A stretch of 64,000 nucleotides of DNA, taken from IMG/VR virus record IMGVR_UViG_3300037132_000276, positions 1 to 64,000 of that record, one strand, 5' to 3'. The DNA is from a virus. A model generated the notes under the pieces. It ran no database searches and had not been told where the DNA came from. It saw only the letters and a program-made list of their open reading frames with translations. A program made the position numbers and the translations under genes. Numbering within the stretch: position 1 is the first letter of the stretch; every line of letters begins with the position of its first letter. Shown one piece after another: positions 1-61,433 of this stretch.

Positions 1-140
1 CTGCTGTTTCCCCAACTCTCGATTGACGGGCTGCTGTTTTCCCAACTCACGATTGACGGGCTGCTGTTTCCCCAACTCTCGATTGACGGGCTGCTGTTTC
101 CCCTACTCTCGATTGACGGGCTGCTGTTTTCCCTACTCAC
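1..140. repeat. 30-bp tandem repeat, at least 4.7 copies, coding
   Basis: ctgctgttt(c/t)ccc(a/t)actc(t/a)cgattgacggg units directly adjacent, with no spacers. Confidence 0.97.
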
Positions 141-320
141 AACATATTGATCATTATATCTGTTACATTCAATCTTCTTCTGAAAAACAATTCTGCCTTT
201 AATTTCCAGAATCTTATTTAGCTTTAAATCTACTTCGCAAATAACTTCCTGATTTTCTTCGACAATGTTTAGCTTGTCAAATTCTTCCTGTGACTGAATA
301 ATAATTTTTGTTCTTTCCAT
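1..320 (-). CDS. Phage protein with 10-aa tandem repeats ([EV]S[RW][EG]NSSPSI), runs off left edge
   Basis: ATG at 320 with AGGAG RBS; MERTKIIIQSQEEFDKLNIV... frame stays open to the window edge; absent from the ORF track because no stop is in the window. Confidence 0.85.
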   Translation of the reverse strand, partial: MERTKIIIQSQEEFDKLNIVEENQEVICEVDLKLNKILEIKGRIVFQKKIECNRYNDQYVVSRENSSPSIESRGNSSPSIESWGNSSPSIVSWENSSPSIESWGNS

Positions 321-27151: not shown

Positions 27152-27502
27152 TCAAAAATATCTATGTGTAACTTTTTTCTTTTCCCAACCTTGATAATCA
27201 AATTTATTTTTGTGTTTCTCAATCAATAAGTTTACATCGCTAAGCAAATATTTTCTGGTGTATTTTGTCCTGCCTGGGATATGAGTTGTTACGGGTGCAA
27301 TTTCCGGATCTTTAATAAATACAAATGTCTTTCTAAACTGCTCGGAAGACATTCCGAATTTAAGAGCTGCTTGTCGTTCGCTTAGCATGGGATCATTTTT
27401 TTGGCTTTGAGTAAAAGCCGACATCATAAGTCCAAGTTTTACACCTTCCCAAAATACCGGTGAATCCGTTTTAAGAAATTCTAAGTTCATTGCGTTCTTC
27501 AA
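27152..27502 (-). CDS. HTH DNA-binding protein (excisionase-like)
   Basis: MLSERQAALKFGMSSEQFRK...RKYLLSDV pattern; start is probably ATG at 27490. Confidence 0.55.
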   Translation of the reverse strand: MKNAMNLEFLKTDSPVFWEGVKLGLMMSAFTQSQKNDPMLSERQAALKFGMSSEQFRKTFVFIKDPEIAPVTTHIPGRTKYTRKYLLSDVNLLIEKHKNKFDYQGWEKKKVTHRYF

Positions 27503-27647
27503 TTACTTTATGTGGGAACATATCTTTTATTATTTCTTTTTTAGCAATTCCTAATTCAGTTAACGTCAGATCTTCGTTGATATATCCATGCATCTTCAAC
27601 AACCCTAATTCGAAGAAATATTTTTCTTTATCAATTACTAATAACAT
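27471..27647 (-). CDS. 58-aa early protein paralogous to the C-terminal domain of the 57660-61433 toxin-like protein; candidate antitoxin
   Basis: MLLVIDKEKYFFELGLLKMHGYINEDLTLTELGIAKKEIIKDMFPHKVIEERNELRIS; below the 60-aa track cutoff; 20/33 aa identical to residues 1190-1222 of the large protein, with 12 of those 20 codons synonymously different. Confidence 0.85.
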   Translation of the reverse strand: MLLVIDKEKYFFELGLLKMHGYINEDLTLTELGIAKKEIIKDMFPHKVIEERNELRIS

Positions 27648-28765: not shown

Positions 28766-28794
28766 ATTATAGTAGAATTATGCTATTTTGTCAA
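28766..28794 (-). promoter_or_regulatory. Early (lytic) sigma70-type promoter
   Basis: Minus strand TTGACA-aaatagcataattctac(17 nt)-TATAAT, a perfect consensus, divergent from the repressor gene. Confidence 0.9.
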
Positions 28795-28819: not shown

Positions 28820-29299
28820 TTGAATAAAAAAGAAGAAATAGGGCACAAATTAAAGGAATTTGTAAAGAATAATTATCCTACTTTAAAAGATTTTGCCGAG
28901 AAAATGGGTAAAGGGAAAACTTTTTTTACGCGTTATTTCAATGGTACGAGTACTTTGGGAGGCGAACTTCTTTCAGAGCTTCGGGAAAAAAGTGATTATA
29001 AACTCGATCTTAATTGGTTATTGACTGGCAAGGGGGAACCTTTTTTGAATACAGATATTGGGGTGAAAGAAAAAATAGAACGTCCATATGATGTGGACAT
29101 AATCAGTCTTAGAAATGAAATACGTGATTTGAAAGCAAGCATGTATGATCTACAGGAAGAAAATAAGGAAATGAAATTATTGCTCACTGCGTTATTGAAA
29201 GATAATATCACTCTCGAAAATAAAAACTTGATATTAAGTGTGTTGTATAATAAAATTGATGATAAAGATGAAAATGCTTCTCTAGAAATATCTCGTTAA
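28820..29299 (+). CDS. CI-like repressor (XRE HTH)
   Basis: TLKDFAEKMGKGKTFFTRYFNG HTH, LDLNWLLTGKGEP motif; divergent from early operon. Confidence 0.85.
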   Translation: MNKKEEIGHKLKEFVKNNYPTLKDFAEKMGKGKTFFTRYFNGTSTLGGELLSELREKSDYKLDLNWLLTGKGEPFLNTDIGVKEKIERPYDVDIISLRNEIRDLKASMYDLQEENKEMKLLLTALLKDNITLENKNLILSVLYNKIDDKDENASLEISR

Positions 29300-45137: not shown

Positions 45138-45391
45138 GAGATTGTCCCTCCGCTTGCCGTACCACCCGTTAATGTGCCATTTGCAGGAGTTGAACCGGTT
45201 ACCGATCCCGCGGAAAAAGAGACTTCACCGCTTTTTACAAAGGTCTCTATAGCGTTTGCAATTGTAGTCCCCAAATTATTTGCCGCGGCCTCCGCCGCTG
45301 CTTTTGCGTCTGCATCGGCATTAGACTGATTAACGTTTGCTTTTAATGCATTTTGTATTGTTGTGGTTAATGTGCTGGTATCAAGTGCCAT
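45134..45391 (-). CDS. Small Ala/Gly/Thr-rich virion protein
   Basis: IANAIETFVKSGEV motif; baseplate cluster. Confidence 0.65.
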   Translation of the reverse strand: MALDTSTLTTTIQNALKANVNQSNADADAKAAAEAAANNLGTTIANAIETFVKSGEVSFSAGSVTGSTPANGTLTGGTASGGTIS

Positions 45392-45466
45392 CGCTCGCTC
45401 GGGGTGGAATACAATTTTGTAAAATACATTTGTCTAAATACGAATGATAAATAAGAAATTGCCATC

Positions 45467-45502
45467 TGGCTTTTGGTGTGAATTATGCAAAAACTATTGA
45501 GT
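45467..45502 (-). promoter_or_regulatory. Repeated late-region element, copy 1 (36 bp identical to 56560-56595)
   Basis: TGGCTTTTGGTGTGAATTATGCAAAAACTATTGAGT, with further imperfect similarity over ~45 bp. Confidence 0.65.
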
Positions 45503-46366
45503 ATCCATGAATGAACTTAATCTTTGGGTGATAGCATCAAATTGTGCCTTGTTCATCGGCGGGCTTATAGTGGGGCCCCCAGGACTGTTATTCGTCATTG
45601 CACAAATTGCCGTTATCAAATCATCGAGGATCTTCTTTAAAGTTTCGTCCTTCCCAACGCGGACAGTCGCCGTTTCGAACACTAAGCCCGTTTTATTAGC
45701 TAAAATGATATTCCCATGTTTATCTTTAAGCTTGAATTTTTCATCATCCTTAGTGTTATCGAAAAGCAACTGGGTGTATGTTGTTTTCCCATCTGCTGTT
45801 TGCAAATTCAGCGCAAACTTACCGTTTAAGGATAGCGAGAAATTACCGTTTGCCGCCTGATCACCCTCGATTTTTATCCCGACATTTCCATTTGTTTTTT
45901 TGCCTTTTAGGTAAAGAAATAAATTACCTTGCCCATCTTCTGTAAAAGAATAAAATCGATTATCATTATTTCGGCTTTTTTGTTTTTCCTGGATCTTATC
46001 ATAGTCCGTTGGCTGGGGATTAAGGACGGCGTCGACGTGGTTTAACGTGAGATCTTGTACTGGGCCAAAAACGACAACCCGGGCGTCAGTGCTGTTTAAA
46101 TAAGAATATAAAACACTTGCTCCATATTCCCGTATGGCACCCGACTCATCTATCAAATAAGGTTTTGGTAGATTCTTCTCGCCATTCTGAAAGTCCCATT
46201 CGCGTGTGAGAAAAAGAACCCGATCCAATGTCACTTCATGTTGTTGGGCGTCTCTAAATATTGTATTCCGGGTTTTTTGATAAAAGATAAATGCCCCGAT
46301 CTGTAAATCTAATTTAGGATTTATCTTTTCTCTACCAGATAAATTTTTCTTAAACCCGTCGCTCAT
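45494..46366 (-). CDS. Baseplate spike/puncturing-type protein
   Basis: Follows hub gene; beta-rich middle; LKKILDDLITAI...GPT.SPP.N C-terminus. Confidence 0.6.
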   Translation of the reverse strand: MSDGFKKNLSGREKINPKLDLQIGAFIFYQKTRNTIFRDAQQHEVTLDRVLFLTREWDFQNGEKNLPKPYLIDESGAIREYGASVLYSYLNSTDARVVVFGPVQDLTLNHVDAVLNPQPTDYDKIQEKQKSRNNDNRFYSFTEDGQGNLFLYLKGKKTNGNVGIKIEGDQAANGNFSLSLNGKFALNLQTADGKTTYTQLLFDNTKDDEKFKLKDKHGNIILANKTGLVFETATVRVGKDETLKKILDDLITAICAMTNNSPGGPTISPPMNKAQFDAITQRLSSFMDTQ

Positions 46367-55543: not shown

Positions 55544-56482
55544 TCACTCTCCTATTACTAATTGATTTTGATCTACTTCATGTTCGTCAATTTCCAGATC
55601 GTCAACACGAACTTCATTTTCTATTTCATGAGCGAATATCACAGTCACTCCAACTGCATTCTCGCCGTGTATTGTTGGATTATAATAATCACCCTCAACC
55701 GTCACCTGACAATTATTGACCTTATAATTTCCTAGTGCTTTTATTAATCTCTCAAGTTGAAGTTTGTAGGCGCGGAACATGTTAGACACAAGATCACGTC
55801 TATCCGTTCCGGCCGTTGTGACAAATGTCGCTCTTATCAAATCGTTATCGGTACTACCGTATATTGTTCCCTGCCCATCCTCATTTTTCAGGTGTCCCCA
55901 ATAATCATGTTTGGTGGATCCGTTTATTCTCTCGATCATTATCCAGTTTTCATTCGGCTGACCAATCATAAATTGTTTATAAATTCCAATATCTCTTGTC
56001 AGATACATTTTATCACCGGAAATGTTTTTAACCGCATCAAACAATTTTTTAATTGCTTTGGCTGTTAAGTCTTTCCCATCCTGGATCCTTACCAATGCAG
56101 TAGGCAGCGGGGTTGCATTGGCGGAAAGCGGAGCGCTTACTTCTTTTGTGGTTTCGTCGCGGATAACCGCTTTGTAATAATATTTGGTATCGTTAAGAAC
56201 TATAAAGTTTGAATAGATGTAAGTATCTTCTTTTGTGGACTTAAATTTATCGAAAACAAAAAGTCCATTATAATTATATCCGGTTAGATCATCTATATGC
56301 GTAAAATAATTGTTGATTTCATCTTGCGAAACGTCGGTTAGGCTTCTTTGGAATATATAAACTTTCCAACTAAGTGGTCGGTCGGCAGGCGTTTGCCAAA
56401 GTATATCGAGCTGATTGCCAAACTGTTTAGCTATAACTTCAAATTTTTCAAGCGAGGTTACCGCCATGTTGCTTCTCTGCAT
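55544..56482 (-). CDS. Tail terminator/completion-like protein with N-terminal FN3-like domain
   Basis: L.W..P, YYYKA..S N-terminal domain; position before sheath. Confidence 0.55.
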   Translation of the reverse strand: MQRSNMAVTSLEKFEVIAKQFGNQLDILWQTPADRPLSWKVYIFQRSLTDVSQDEINNYFTHIDDLTGYNYNGLFVFDKFKSTKEDTYIYSNFIVLNDTKYYYKAVIRDETTKEVSAPLSANATPLPTALVRIQDGKDLTAKAIKKLFDAVKNISGDKMYLTRDIGIYKQFMIGQPNENWIMIERINGSTKHDYWGHLKNEDGQGTIYGSTDNDLIRATFVTTAGTDRRDLVSNMFRAYKLQLERLIKALGNYKVNNCQVTVEGDYYNPTIHGENAVGVTVIFAHEIENEVRVDDLEIDEHEVDQNQLVIGE

Positions 56483-56559
56483 TATGCACGAACTTGTAAT
56501 TCGTGATTATGTGGAAATACATTTTTGTAAATACAATGGATAAATAATTAAAAGTGGGA

Positions 56560-56595
56560 TGGCTTTTGGTGTGAATTATGCAAAAACTATTGAGT
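56560..56595 (-). promoter_or_regulatory. Repeated late-region element, copy 2
   Basis: Identical to 45467-45502, upstream of the tail gene block. Confidence 0.65.
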
Positions 56596-56742
56596 TGTGG
56601 AGTAAATGTGTTTTAATAAAAAGGTAACGACCCGAAGCTTTTATCGAGAAGCTACCATATTGGTTTGGGAGGAACCCAAACCGTTGGGTTGTATGTGCAC
56701 CCGAAAATTAAACATCTTTAAAATAACATGCAATAGCTTTTC

Positions 56743-57660
56743 TTAATTTGCATTTGGTAATATCCTTGCTATATCTTTTTTGGCGGCTTCGGCTAACATC
56801 ATTTGGACACTTTGCTTGGTGCTATCATATGTTTCACCTAAAATTCTCAGGGCTTCAACCTTTGGGTGGACCCATCCATCGGAATCCTCTGTCATAACCC
56901 TGAATGTCATATATAAGCTGTGCTGCGTTTTGTTGCTCGTTTCGTTCATAGATCCAAACTTGCCAAAATCAAATTTTTCTCGGTTAATATTTGGATTGGT
57001 TTCGAATCTTACCATATTTTTATAGATGCTGCCATCTTCCAACTCTGCGCCTTTAATATGAGTTAATTTATCGCCCCATAAATAGCCATTTTTTTGAACT
57101 CGCTTGGGGTTATTCCTTCTCAACAAGTCTGCATCTGCTATGGTCGTTGCCTGTCGTATGCTCCCCTCGTTATATTTATTAGATACAATGCTGGGCTTTA
57201 ATCTTACGGCTTCGCTGTAAACTTCTTGCGGCATTTCTCGTTTACTCTTAGCGCCCGGCGTTCCATGTTCAAAAGGAATAATCAAATATCGCTTGCCGTC
57301 TTTACTTATCCGCACTTTATCGCTTGTCTGTAAAGCTTTTTTCATGTCAAAGAGCTGGAAACCAGACTCTAAGTACTTCGCATAATCTTTTGTGTGCTCA
57401 ATTCTATAATAAAGTGGATCGCCCTGATATGGATATTTAATCCCTTCGACTATACCGCGAGCATAACCGCCTTCCGAATGCTTGAACTTACTTGCGGCAA
57501 CATTAAGCCAACTTTGCGTTACGTGATCACCAGCAACATGAATGGCTTCCTGCAGATAACTTCCATTCTTATCAAGTTCTTGTTCATAACGTCGCTGGAT
57601 CTCTCTTACGAGTTCGTTTAATGCAGAATAATCAAGGTCGTAAACAATTTCATAATTCAT
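56743..57660 (-). CDS. Neck/head-tail joining protein
   Basis: YAKYLESG..FDMK, DGKRYLIIPF.HGTPG, YMTFRV, GWVHP motifs of myovirus neck-region proteins. Confidence 0.7.
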   Translation of the reverse strand: MNYEIVYDLDYSALNELVREIQRRYEQELDKNGSYLQEAIHVAGDHVTQSWLNVAASKFKHSEGGYARGIVEGIKYPYQGDPLYYRIEHTKDYAKYLESGFQLFDMKKALQTSDKVRISKDGKRYLIIPFEHGTPGAKSKREMPQEVYSEAVRLKPSIVSNKYNEGSIRQATTIADADLLRRNNPKRVQKNGYLWGDKLTHIKGAELEDGSIYKNMVRFETNPNINREKFDFGKFGSMNETSNKTQHSLYMTFRVMTEDSDGWVHPKVEALRILGETYDSTKQSVQMMLAEAAKKDIARILPNAN

Positions 57661-60600
57661 TATTTTTTGTCCGGATCCTTGTCGGCAATGTTTTTCTTTG
57701 GATTTAAGATGGAATTAAAATCAGTCCCGCTTTCTTCTTCCGGAGAAAACTTATCTCCAAAATCTTTTTCAAATTTAGCCTCGCCTTCGGGGGTAAGTAT
57801 CATATTCTCGTCAATTAACCCATGCATACAGAGTAATCCAAGTTCAAAAAAGTCCTGTTCCGGATCCAGCTCATGATCTTCGGGGAATCCCGCCAACATT
57901 TTTATTTTTTCGCCATCAGTCAACGTCCCATTGCCCTTATCTACATTGTCCCCTGATTTATCCGGTTTGCCTAATGGTAAAGATTTTTCAATTTTTCCAG
58001 AACCTATTTTGTGAAATTCTTTATGAACATCGGGATGATGTATTTTCTCTCTTCCGTCAATTTTCTGATAGAATAGTTTTACACCTTCACCTAATGGAGC
58101 AGAGTTATCAAAAACGTCGAAATTGTCAAAGTCCTCTTTCAGCTGGAAAAATGCTTTGTGGGTCTGGTAATCACCGAACTCCTTTTTATATAAATCTGTC
58201 CCTATTGATCTTCCTCCATGTTGACCCCTCGCTTTGTCCCTTTCAATTCCGCTTTTAAGTGGAATATGAATAAATTTTGCATTTATCTGAAAAGTGTCAT
58301 ACTTCACGATTTCAAGTAGATCTCTAAGATTTTCCTCTCCCTTCATCGTGGTATCATAAACAACATCTTTCCCCTCTCTTACCGCCTCACGAATTAAATG
58401 TTTTGCTATTACCGAACTATCCTCATGAAGCTCCCACGGTTTTTTGTCGACCTCTTCTTTCCCGATTCCACGCTCATCGGCAATCATGTATTTAATAGCA
58501 TCCGGATCTATTACCACTTTATTTTGATTGAAAGAATGTCCCAATACCGAACTTTTGCCGCTACCGGGGAGCCCACCGGTAATATATAGCTGACCTATGC
58601 CATCACCCGCCTCGCTAAATAGTTTTTTCTTAATCGAACTGTACTCGGGTATTGCTTCGGCTACGACCTTCAACTTTAACGAGAATTCCGTTTCTCTTAA
58701 AGCATTCGGCTTTTTGGCACAATCCTCTGCCGCCTTAGCCAAATCCGGCGAAGCAAATTGTAATTCTTTCGGGCATGGATCGTTGTCCCCTTTTTTTATT
58801 TTAATACGAACGAAGAAGTTTTCACGATCAATATCGGATTTGTCCGGCATCTCCCCATCAACCGCATAACCTTTATCTTTCAATTCGCCAATAACTCTAT
58901 TGATTTTATAAGGACTACTTATAGCAAACGCCCCAATTAAAGCACTATTGGGTGCCTCCTCCCCATATTTATCGGCATTTCTTCTGATTTCCTTAAATAA
59001 AGCATCCTGTTTCTTAATTATTTTGTTGTTATTGCTAAATTCTAAATTTAAGGCATTTGCGACATCTTCAAGATCACGGAAAAACCAACTTTTTTGCCCC
59101 TTACCCAAATCAGCAAAATCCTCTGCTTTTTCATTATATCTATTATAATTTCTCATTTTCTCTAACGATTTTGCGCGTTCGGCGTTTTCTTTGGCCCGCT
59201 CCATTTCAACGGGGATTGATTGATCCTGACTTTTTTCCTCGGTTGAAATAGTAATGTTCTTATCAGAAAAATTATATTGAACTCCGCCCTCCATCGCTAA
59301 AACGGATTGATTTTTAGGAACGTTAATTACAGAATCAAATCCATTTTTTTCTTTAAGGAATAGCGAATAATTTCCATCGCTATTTTCATTAATGAGCTGG
59401 AAAGTGCCTTCATCTAAAAGATTACCGTCGTTATCGGTTACAAAAGCTTTGTTGCCAAGCTTATCCTGCAGCATGTCATAACTTTGTGCCGGCGTTATAG
59501 TCTTCCCCTTGCTTTTTTCTTCCGGCTGATTATTATTTTGACCCCCGGATTCTTTTTTGTTGAGAAATCTCCAGTGGGCGCCTTTGCCTTTTTCGTCGCG
59601 TTTTAATTGAAGCGTTCCGCCTTTCCCTTCTTTGGTTTGACCTTCCTTAGAATATGGTTCTTCAAATAAAGAAACTTGGGCCCCAAATGCTTTTACAAAG
59701 TTCTTAAAAATGCTTTTCATATATTCCGCCTTTTTCTCAAACACTCGCTCTGCAACTGCACTTTTCCAATTCAGACTTGCGCCGGTACCGTTTTTTATCG
59801 AAAGGCAATCAAATAAACCAATGTCTTTTATTTTCAGTTGTTCGGAGATTGAATTAAGTTTTTGTCTGAATATCACATCTTCAAAATCTTTATTTGTCAT
59901 CACGATTGAATTAACTCCGCCGCTTCTTCCGACTAACACCGCAATTTCATCAGCTGTTTCTTTTGAATTGTCAAGAGAGGAAGTGAGGTTAAACCTGCCG
60001 ACAATTGAGTTACGAGAATTCAGAGACAATACCTGTGCTTTGTCCCCTAGAGTAAATCTACCCTTATAAACAAATTCAACAATATCTTCGGGGGTATGAA
60101 TATTATTTTGAGAGATGGTGGCGTTTTTATTGAAAATTTGCCTGCTGAATCGAAAAGCTTTTAAATTTTTAGCATTTTTCCCATGTTCTGTATTTGTCAA
60201 TTGTCCATGTCCCCAAGCTGAGCCATGCGGTTCGAAAAAGCCATAACTACCTTCTCGCGCATCAATTATTACCGCGGGCATCATTACAACATCTTTAGGC
60301 AGCCCATCTTTTATCTTTAACCATATATTTTGGTCTTCATTTGATGGATCAAGATTCCCGCTTGGATGGTTATGTACGAAATGAAGCTTGGTTGTTCCAA
60401 ATCTATTAATTGCATCCCATATTTGACTAGGGGAAACCAAAGAAGAATTGAAATTTCCGGTTGAAATATGCTGAACAATTATCCCATGCTTTTCGGTCTC
60501 GTGGGCTACAAAACAATGCTCTACCGCCTCATCCTGCAGCTGATTAAAAATATAAGCAACATCATCCGCCGTTTTTATCGTTTCATGCGCTGCATAAAAT

Positions 60601-61433
60601 TTTAGCTCTTTATAAGCTTTATATTTACGCTCAAAAACAGATTCCTCGCCTTCCTGTAGCGGCCGATAGCTTAATGGTAGGCTTTGCCTAATCCAATCTT
60701 TTATTTTTGGATTAGGTTTAATGACTGCCTGTTTCTTTTTATCAACCTCCAATAATTTGGCGTGCTTTTTTTTAACCGCTTCATAAAGTTCGTGACTATA
60801 ATTTGCGGAATCCCCATTGTTTACATCTTCAAGATATTGCTCCATTTCATACATCGTCATTCTCGCCGCAACATCTTCCGGTTTTGTCGAAACTTCTATA
60901 CTCGCCAAGCCTGCAAGGGCTGAATTCTTTTTCTGGTTAATCTTTTTTGGTTTGTGGATATTGACTTTATTTTCTTTTTTGCCAATTTCTTCAATTGCTC
61001 CTTCAATCATATTATCAACAATCGATTTCACTCCTTCAATATCTTCATCAGTAATTTTTTCATGTTTATTTATTTTTTCAACAAATGTTTGTTTGATATG
61101 GTCGCATATATTCCAAAGATCGTCGGCGATTCTTTTGCCATCAGCACTATGAACATTATTAAGAATTTCTTGCGCCTTTTTACTTAATCTATCAACATGT
61201 TCAGAAACCGGACTATCTGAATATTCCTTTATAATTTTTTCGTCTCTGTCTTCTTCTTTATCCGCGTTTTTCCAACGCAACTTACCGCTACCGACAATCT
61301 CCAATTTACGTTTATCTCCTGGCGCAAACTCTTTTTCTGCTCCTGCAATCGGTTTGCCAAAAATATTAATTTGTGCGGGATCGTTGCCCTTAATGGCCTT
61401 TGAAAGAGTTACGGGTTTGCTAAATATTTTCAT
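57660..61433 (-). CDS. Polyvalent protein: RadC/JAB domain, degenerate second JAB, zeta-toxin-like P-loop kinase, C-terminal small domain
   Basis: E..HFVHNHPSGNLDPSNED (JAB, H354/H356); GGLPGSGKS (953-961), IDPDAIK, VYDTT, RGQHGGR, FDNS. Confidence 0.88.
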   Translation of the reverse strand: MKIFSKPVTLSKAIKGNDPAQINIFGKPIAGAEKEFAPGDKRKLEIVGSGKLRWKNADKEEDRDEKIIKEYSDSPVSEHVDRLSKKAQEILNNVHSADGKRIADDLWNICDHIKQTFVEKINKHEKITDEDIEGVKSIVDNMIEGAIEEIGKKENKVNIHKPKKINQKKNSALAGLASIEVSTKPEDVAARMTMYEMEQYLEDVNNGDSANYSHELYEAVKKKHAKLLEVDKKKQAVIKPNPKIKDWIRQSLPLSYRPLQEGEESVFERKYKAYKELKFYAAHETIKTADDVAYIFNQLQDEAVEHCFVAHETEKHGIIVQHISTGNFNSSLVSPSQIWDAINRFGTTKLHFVHNHPSGNLDPSNEDQNIWLKIKDGLPKDVVMMPAVIIDAREGSYGFFEPHGSAWGHGQLTNTEHGKNAKNLKAFRFSRQIFNKNATISQNNIHTPEDIVEFVYKGRFTLGDKAQVLSLNSRNSIVGRFNLTSSLDNSKETADEIAVLVGRSGGVNSIVMTNKDFEDVIFRQKLNSISEQLKIKDIGLFDCLSIKNGTGASLNWKSAVAERVFEKKAEYMKSIFKNFVKAFGAQVSLFEEPYSKEGQTKEGKGGTLQLKRDEKGKGAHWRFLNKKESGGQNNNQPEEKSKGKTITPAQSYDMLQDKLGNKAFVTDNDGNLLDEGTFQLINENSDGNYSLFLKEKNGFDSVINVPKNQSVLAMEGGVQYNFSDKNITISTEEKSQDQSIPVEMERAKENAERAKSLEKMRNYNRYNEKAEDFADLGKGQKSWFFRDLEDVANALNLEFSNNNKIIKKQDALFKEIRRNADKYGEEAPNSALIGAFAISSPYKINRVIGELKDKGYAVDGEMPDKSDIDRENFFVRIKIKKGDNDPCPKELQFASPDLAKAAEDCAKKPNALRETEFSLKLKVVAEAIPEYSSIKKKLFSEAGDGIGQLYITGGLPGSGKSSVLGHSFNQNKVVIDPDAIKYMIADERGIGKEEVDKKPWELHEDSSVIAKHLIREAVREGKDVVYDTTMKGEENLRDLLEIVKYDTFQINAKFIHIPLKSGIERDKARGQHGGRSIGTDLYKKEFGDYQTHKAFFQLKEDFDNFDVFDNSAPLGEGVKLFYQKIDGREKIHHPDVHKEFHKIGSGKIEKSLPLGKPDKSGDNVDKGNGTLTDGEKIKMLAGFPEDHELDPEQDFFELGLLCMHGLIDENMILTPEGEAKFEKDFGDKFSPEEESGTDFNSILNPKKNIADKDPDKK

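Follow-up and report, generated by a model that had tools for sequence, protein, structure and literature searches.

A short early gene of a temperate phage encodes a truncated homologue of the acidic domain at the end of a late polyvalent protein

Results

A 58-aa gene in the leftward early operon

The DNA analyzed here (the window) covers the initial 64 kb of an IMG/VR record of 92.6 kb, which is designated G000 and estimated to be 72% complete. The phage encodes a tyrosine integrase together with a cI-like repressor and is temperate. In translation, the ends of the record have approximately 41 amino acids in common (80% identity; window positions 1-147 and G000 positions 92298-92603), which may correspond to terminal redundancy or to a repeated gene end. 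The early region of the window contains the following features.

27152..27490, minus strand: downstream early gene, 112 aa from the ATG at 27490
27471..27647, minus strand: 58-aa early ORF, truncated member of a winged-helix-like family with a predicted strand, helix, beta-hairpin and helix
27631..28092, minus strand: upstream early gene, 153 aa, with orthologues at ~30% identity in the related phages G002 and G004
28766..28794, minus strand: sigma-70-type promoter of the leftward early operon, 12/12 match to TTGACA-17-TATAAT
28820..29299, plus strand: cI-like repressor gene, divergent from the early operon, with PHROG 8/4 transcriptional repressor matches

The initial annotation of this DNA placed the 58-aa ORF about 1.1 kb downstream of an early promoter. 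As proposed, a sequence identical to the sigma-70 consensus at all 12 positions was found at this distance upstream of the ORF (28794-28766, minus strand). The N-terminus of the 58-aa product reads MLLVIDKEKYFFELG. At its start the ORF shares 17 nt with the end of the 153-aa gene, and its last codons overlap the start of the 112-aa gene. Overlap with both flanking genes suggests that translation of the ORF is coupled to that of its neighbors. Three homologues of similar size (58-61 aa), P0002 (88% identical), P0003 (69%), and P0005 (64%), have the start, the stop, and the C-terminal NELRIS sequence in common with the 58-aa ORF. Overlap with the downstream gene may explain why NELRIS is invariant in this clade. 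P0003 and P0005 are encoded on contigs of 7.3 kb and 22.8 kb, respectively. A P0002-like variant was present on a pond-metagenome contig (contigs of four sequencing runs, with low and patchy cover), and the best DNA match for the record among sequencing data was a peat metagenome. No RNA sequencing run was listed as containing the sequence.

The 58-aa ORF had no match in Pfam, PHROG, NCBIfam, or PADLOC, and tblastn against cultured phages returned only chance-level matches. Scans of viral contigs with the ORF, its neighbor, P0011, and P0017 found nothing. The conserved homologues and the overlaps with its neighbors indicate that the 58-aa ORF is a real gene.

A zeta-like kinase and an acidic tail domain in a late polyvalent protein

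The second locus lies 30 kb away, in the late block that contains the virion genes.

57660..61433, minus strand: gene for the 1257-aa polyvalent protein, late/virion block
60300..60569, minus strand: RadC-like JAB domain, residues 289-378 (Pfam PF04002, E 6.9e-13)
58104..58589, minus strand: Zeta_toxin/AAA_33 P-loop kinase, residues 949-1110 (PF06414, 45.7-49.8 bits, cut-off 22.3)
57921..57992, minus strand: variable linker from IEKS, residues 1148-1171 (27-42% identity among orthologues)
57750..57920, minus strand: acidic winged-helix-like tail domain, residues 1172-1228 (HMM 86-88 bits)

The combination of RadC and Zeta_toxin domains in one protein encoded in the late block, together with two more such proteins, identifies the 1257-aa product as a polyvalent protein. 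In the portion of their survey available to us, Iyer, Burroughs, Anand, de Souza and Aravind (2017; PMC5512222) list zeta-toxin-like kinases, RadC, and occasional wHTH/HTH domains among the components of polyvalent proteins, and propose that zeta-like kinases of polyvalent or MuF-fused proteins weaken the cell wall at entry. The 1257-aa protein resembles these proteins in combining a RadC-JAB domain and a zeta-like kinase in one product of the virion block. Unlike the catalogued domains, its small acidic C-terminal domain matches no family above threshold, and the same portion of the survey describes no early-gene paralogue of a polyvalent-protein domain.

The two other giant proteins are also encoded in the late block. 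The first (2183 aa; L007:7629-14180, G000 69.6-76.2 kb) contains InPase and SNF2 helicase domains and the second (1175 aa; L007:16381-19908, G000 78.4-81.9 kb) contains a ddrB-like ParB domain, a content that resembles that of the Dar system of phage P1. A repeat (70% identity in translation over 27 codons) was also detected between positions 45370-45516 and 56451-56612, two sites of the late operon located 11 kb apart.

The kinase domain retains an intact Walker A motif (GGLPGSGKS), has an IDPD motif, and scores above the Pfam gathering cut-off for the zeta toxin family. Since PF06414 also matched in each of the 14 control genomes, this match does not establish that the kinase is toxic or that it has the UDP-GlcNAc (or NAD) kinase activity of zeta toxins. 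The best Foldseek matches of the kinase, obtained with a low-confidence model, were PezT (2p5t) and zeta (1gvn) with E values of 4e-3 to 7e-3; these matches were weak, and polynucleotide (PNK) and adenylate kinases were mixed in with them. Searching the PDB with the kinase sequence retrieved no solved zeta toxin, and PDB profile searches gave only chance-level matches.

The IEKS motif and the flexible linker that had been noted after the kinase are both present. Among orthologues of the large protein, identity amounts to 69-77% in the kinase, 27-42% in the linker, and 61-80% in the tail domain, indicating that the kinase and the tail fold as units of their own, connected by a variable tether. 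All orthologues whose C-terminus is complete have the fusion, which is confined to one orthologous lineage of phage proteins. No module cassette, recognizable by its KAFGxQ motif, is inserted between kinase and tail, and in the orthologue P0006 a new cassette follows the tail. A conserved K-S follows the kinase and is similar to the one with which module cassettes start. On a 5554-bp JGI contig, an orthologous large gene is split within the tail region into pieces of 527 aa (P0027) and 71 aa (P0030), the latter beginning with MHGLIDEN; the split may reflect a frameshift or faulty assembly.

Modeling of the kinase and tail by AF2 gave a mean pLDDT of 58, and the placement of the tail was of low confidence. 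Co-folding of kinase residues 909-1154 with the 58-aa protein gave values of 0.84, 0.00, and 0.00 in separate runs, which speaks neither for nor against binding.

The early ORF is a divergent and truncated homologue of the tail domain

Residues 1190-1222 of the 1257-aa protein (nt 57768-57866) read DPEQDFFELGLLCMHGLIDENMILTPEGEAKFE. Gapless alignment of this segment with the 58-aa product revealed 20 identical residues out of 33, 12 of which are specified by different codons, and identity at the nucleotide level was 56/99 nt. BLASTP together with a codon count reproduced the protein-level homology that the initial annotation had described: residues 5-36 of the small protein aligned without gaps to residues 1189-1220 of the large protein with 19/32 identities (E 4e-9). 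In an all-against-all comparison of the 877 six-frame ORFs of the record, the pair was recovered with an E value of 4.9e-6 and was among very few intragenomic protein matches. The 58-aa ORF and the tail are the only two members of the family in the whole record.

The 58-aa ORF spans approximately two thirds of the domain. It lacks an N-terminal helix, KxKVLMxWD, which is present in the tail and in all other family members. In a maximum likelihood tree, the four small-ORF sequences formed a long-branch clade (3.2 substitutions per column), and the fused domains formed a separate clade among the full-length stand-alone proteins. This separation indicates that the early ORF is not a recent copy of the tail. 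Thus, the description of the ORF as a stand-alone copy of the tail holds in that the two are true homologues; it fails in that the early protein is a divergent, truncated, and near-neutral offshoot and not a close copy of the acidic tail.

A rare domain family with winged-helix-like predictions

Members of the family were collected by an exhaustive HMMER search of 1.84 billion representative proteins with a five-sequence profile (A1). Seventeen proteins were recovered, comprising three fused forms, 13 stand-alone forms, and P0012. The fused forms were P0004 (1257 aa, matched at 1185-1236 and evidently the window's own protein) and P0006 and P0007, which are zeta-kinase-bearing orthologues of the large protein. 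Among the stand-alone forms, P0005 (61 aa) belongs to the small-ORF type and the other twelve are full-length proteins with 64-101 aa. A word-index search for longer proteins had returned no fused forms (the exhaustive search found them). Profiles of the small-ORF clade and of the stand-alone proteins only (A4) aligned by hhalign with 97.8% probability (E 9e-13). By tblastn, neither the tail domain nor P0008 detected anything in cultured phages, and P0008 detected nothing in plasmids. P0012, a 1415-aa NCBI protein encoded on a 25-kb contig, contains seven tandem WQDFKELGLLSPxSMHQAVTExG repeats; these resemble the family core FFELGLLxMHG...LTxxG, and the protein may be a distant, repeated relative.

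In full-length members, the KxKVLMxWD helix is followed by the motif (D/E)xDPEEDFFELGLLxMHGLIDxxLxLTxxGxKxF. No Pfam family claims the domain above threshold, and no family of PHROG, NCBIfam, or PADLOC covers it either. The closest was PF24409 (wHTH-PRTase_assc), whose helix-3/wing region was matched in seven of 20 members; the best E value was 8.4e-5, and all scores were below the 27-bit gathering cut-off (17 bits for P0008). An Atlas structural neighbor (TM 0.62) adds to the resemblance, and the family differs from PF24409 in that no PRTase association was seen. The structural neighbors of P0016 in the Atlas were wHTH families. The AF2 model of the 58-aa protein (pLDDT 77) consists of a strand, a helix, a beta-hairpin, and a helix, and its top Foldseek matches were MarR, YodB, and HypR winged helices at E values of 0.6 or higher, which is below significance, as were the results of a wide VIA-align search (Z of at most 4.3). 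Where canonical wHTH domains carry two helices, members of this family carry a single N-terminal helix plus an acidic loop.

The similarity of FFELG to a carrier-protein motif raised the possibility of a PP-binding domain (PF00550). This candidate was rejected: the family reads FFELG-L-L-x-MHG, with no serine as in the (D/H)S motif that follows FFxLGG and to which phosphopantetheine is attached, and PF00550 matched only at E ~0.1.

Full-length members carry net charges of -5 to -21 (pI 4.0-4.9), and the tail domain a net charge of -14 (pI 4.1); values for the small-ORF clade range from -4 to +1. The strong acidity of the full-length members makes a protein-binding module likelier than a DNA-binding one. 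We therefore regard the shared domain as a rare, uncatalogued family, predicted to be winged-helix-like and more likely to bind protein. A winged-helix-like interaction element had been offered as the alternative in the initial annotation and provides the best fit to the PF24409, Foldseek, and Atlas matches, all of which are weak.

Several stand-alone homologues are located on contigs of 160-994 kb, one of them a Bacteroidota MAG; P0021 is on a contig of 807 kb and P0015 on one of 257 kb, and P0019 corresponds to MGE5680367.1. Scans of genome contigs found nothing, and the metagenome scan found one locus (L006). There, the gene for P0016 (77 aa; MBU1097312.1) immediately follows hsdM, hsdS, and hsdR in a type I restriction-modification locus. 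Next come genes for a protein of 195 aa and a membrane protein of 1009 aa with no known family, and hsdR fragments lie beyond them. No P-loop kinase was found beside P0016, the sole stand-alone context that was read. The three genes, encoding the 77-aa family member, the acidic 195-aa protein, and the 1009-aa membrane protein (which has no Pfam or PADLOC match), form a cassette (L006:9977-14058, Ga0180007_10000003) between the complete hsdR and two hsdR 3' fragments. This arrangement looks like an insertion with duplication in a type I R-M operon and could represent an embedded defense or regulatory module.

The early ORF is absent from related kinase-bearing phages

Orthologues of the large protein were available from three related records, G002 (66 kb), G003 (53 kb), and G004 (93 kb, classed as a provirus), which are 62-73% complete and whose early proteins are ~30% identical to those of the window. 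The relatives also include a copy on a 166-kb contig of an Ignavibacteriaceae MAG. G001, which is closest to the window in its tail sequence, is fragmentary and contains no early region. Whole records were searched in six frames by unfiltered hmmsearch with three profiles, the window's own record serving as the positive control. G002, G003, and G004 each gave a single match, which was the tail, and no second family member.

A syntenic early block is present in G002 and G004, where the 153-aa gene and a 401-aa gene both have orthologues. The order of the early products in these two phages is 150/162 aa, 110/111 aa, a Zn-ribbon protein, and 358/370 aa. The first two early genes overlap by 17 nt in both phages, with nothing between them. 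The small ORF was expected to co-occur with zeta-bearing alleles but was absent from three of three kinase-bearing relatives, and its slot in the early operon was empty in two. Since the relatives keep the kinase and the tail in the absence of the small ORF, the 58-aa ORF is an insert specific to the sub-lineage of the window. We interpret it as an accessory insert between two conserved early genes, dispensable in these relatives and unlikely to be required as an obligate antidote. A non-homologous substitute encoded elsewhere in G002 to G004 is possible.

Discussion

The accessory early gene encodes a minimal, truncated member of the domain family, and a full-length member forms the tail of the polyvalent protein. 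We consider it probable, if by no means certain, that the two are old paralogues and that a mobile family, mostly composed of small stand-alone bacterial proteins, was the source of both phage copies. The tail would serve the kinase unit as an adaptor or a regulator. The early protein would bind the same class of partner as the tail, adding to its effect or competing with it, and would not be a required neutralizer of an injected toxin.

The role of the tail could be narrower. In an account that we think unlikely but that fares best among the alternatives, the tail is a kinase-specific module acting in cis, either autoinhibitory or substrate-recruiting, and shares nothing but ancestry with the early ORF. 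The equal conservation of kinase and tail across the variable linker, the constancy of the fusion in orthologues with a complete C-terminus, the location of the P0006 cassette after the tail rather than ahead of it, and the dispensability of the small ORF all argue in its favor. It is weakened by family members that stand alone without kinases, and the AF2 model, in which the tail is not confidently placed, lends it no structural support. Constancy of the fusion in one lineage is compatible with a kinase-specific role of the tail, and a cis-regulatory role for the kinase is plausible.

The winged-helix-like predictions, the rare wHTH/HTH domains in the polyvalent proteins covered by the accessible part of PMC5512222, and the lower acidity of the small-ORF clade relative to the remaining family would also accommodate a DNA-binding function, the 58-aa protein regulating early transcription and the tail tethering the polyvalent protein to DNA. 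We hold this to be improbable: the tail and the full-length members are strongly acidic, the conserved helix FFELGLLxMHG is hydrophobic and acidic instead of polar and basic, and the small ORF is devoid of the first helix of an HTH.

The initial annotation proposed that a toxic zeta kinase is kept silent by its tail while it is made late in infection, that the tail is cut away within the head, and that the kinase enters the next cell in its active form, to be neutralized by the early 58-aa paralogue only if the phage genome is transcribed. Several observations are in line with this proposal, including the intact Walker A motif and the IDPD motif of a kinase that passes the PF06414 cut-off, a tail that is acidic like epsilon antitoxins and always present in orthologues, the conserved K-S after the kinase, as at the start of module cassettes, and the position of the paralogue 1.1 kb downstream of a consensus promoter, within the early operon. 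Inhibition of a zeta kinase by a domain fused in cis is established for EzeT (reviewed in PMC10532202). As in epsilon/zeta, PezAT, and EzeT, a P-loop kinase recognized by the Zeta_toxin model is joined here to a small acidic domain. Unlike in these systems, the candidate inhibitor is C-terminal, is predicted to be winged-helix-like, and does not match epsilon or PezA in sequence; epsilon and PezA antitoxin genes sit beside their toxin genes and are inherited with them, whereas the trans copy is 30 kb away from the kinase gene and missing from G002 to G004.

The comparative data do not support the proposal. Three relatives keep the kinase and the tail without the small ORF, and P0016 has no kinase neighbor. 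Helix 1 is missing from the early ORF, whose product is near neutral and falls on a long, separate branch. Among 20 family members, no epsilon or PezA antitoxin family of Pfam was matched at E <= 1, and the predicted fold does not appear to be the three-helix bundle with which such antitoxins occlude the ATP site. The kinase match itself recurs in all of the control genomes. Moreover, an immune lysogen that is superinfected would receive the toxin while the antidote gene is repressed, which would be a cost to the prophage. We therefore consider an injected toxin with an early antidote to be quite improbable, slightly more so than DNA binding. A weaker version, in which the tail is a lid in cis on an injected kinase and the truncated early paralogue is an optional, additional neutralizer in trans in one sub-lineage, appears scarcely more credible and, if anything, marginally less so; if true, it would tie the survival of the host after injection to early transcription of the phage.

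The location of the gene among virion genes, beside two giant cargo-like proteins, would suit a tail that targets head cargo to the capsid, with a functionally unrelated small ORF, but this is very improbable given the second copy of the domain in the genome and the stand-alone homologues encoded on bacterial contigs that reach 994 kb, and a general capsid tag was rejected because the domain is absent from the other two giant proteins.

Phages can supply paralogous functions twice, as illustrated by the ADP-ribosyltransferases of T4, of which Alt is injected from the virion and ModA and ModB are expressed early. Unlike these enzymes, which have known targets, the early and late proteins described here have only a small, putative binding domain in common, and packaging of the late protein is putative.

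If it were true, the toxin and antidote reading would give phages a novel means of punishing cells that destroy phage DNA. The evidence points instead to a more ordinary case, in which an uncatalogued acidic domain moves among bacterial loci, a polyvalent protein, and an accessory early gene. The occurrence of a common domain in an early gene and in a late protein does not imply that the two form a matched pair. The stand-alone proteins offer a simple handle for identifying the binding partner of the kinase module's tail.
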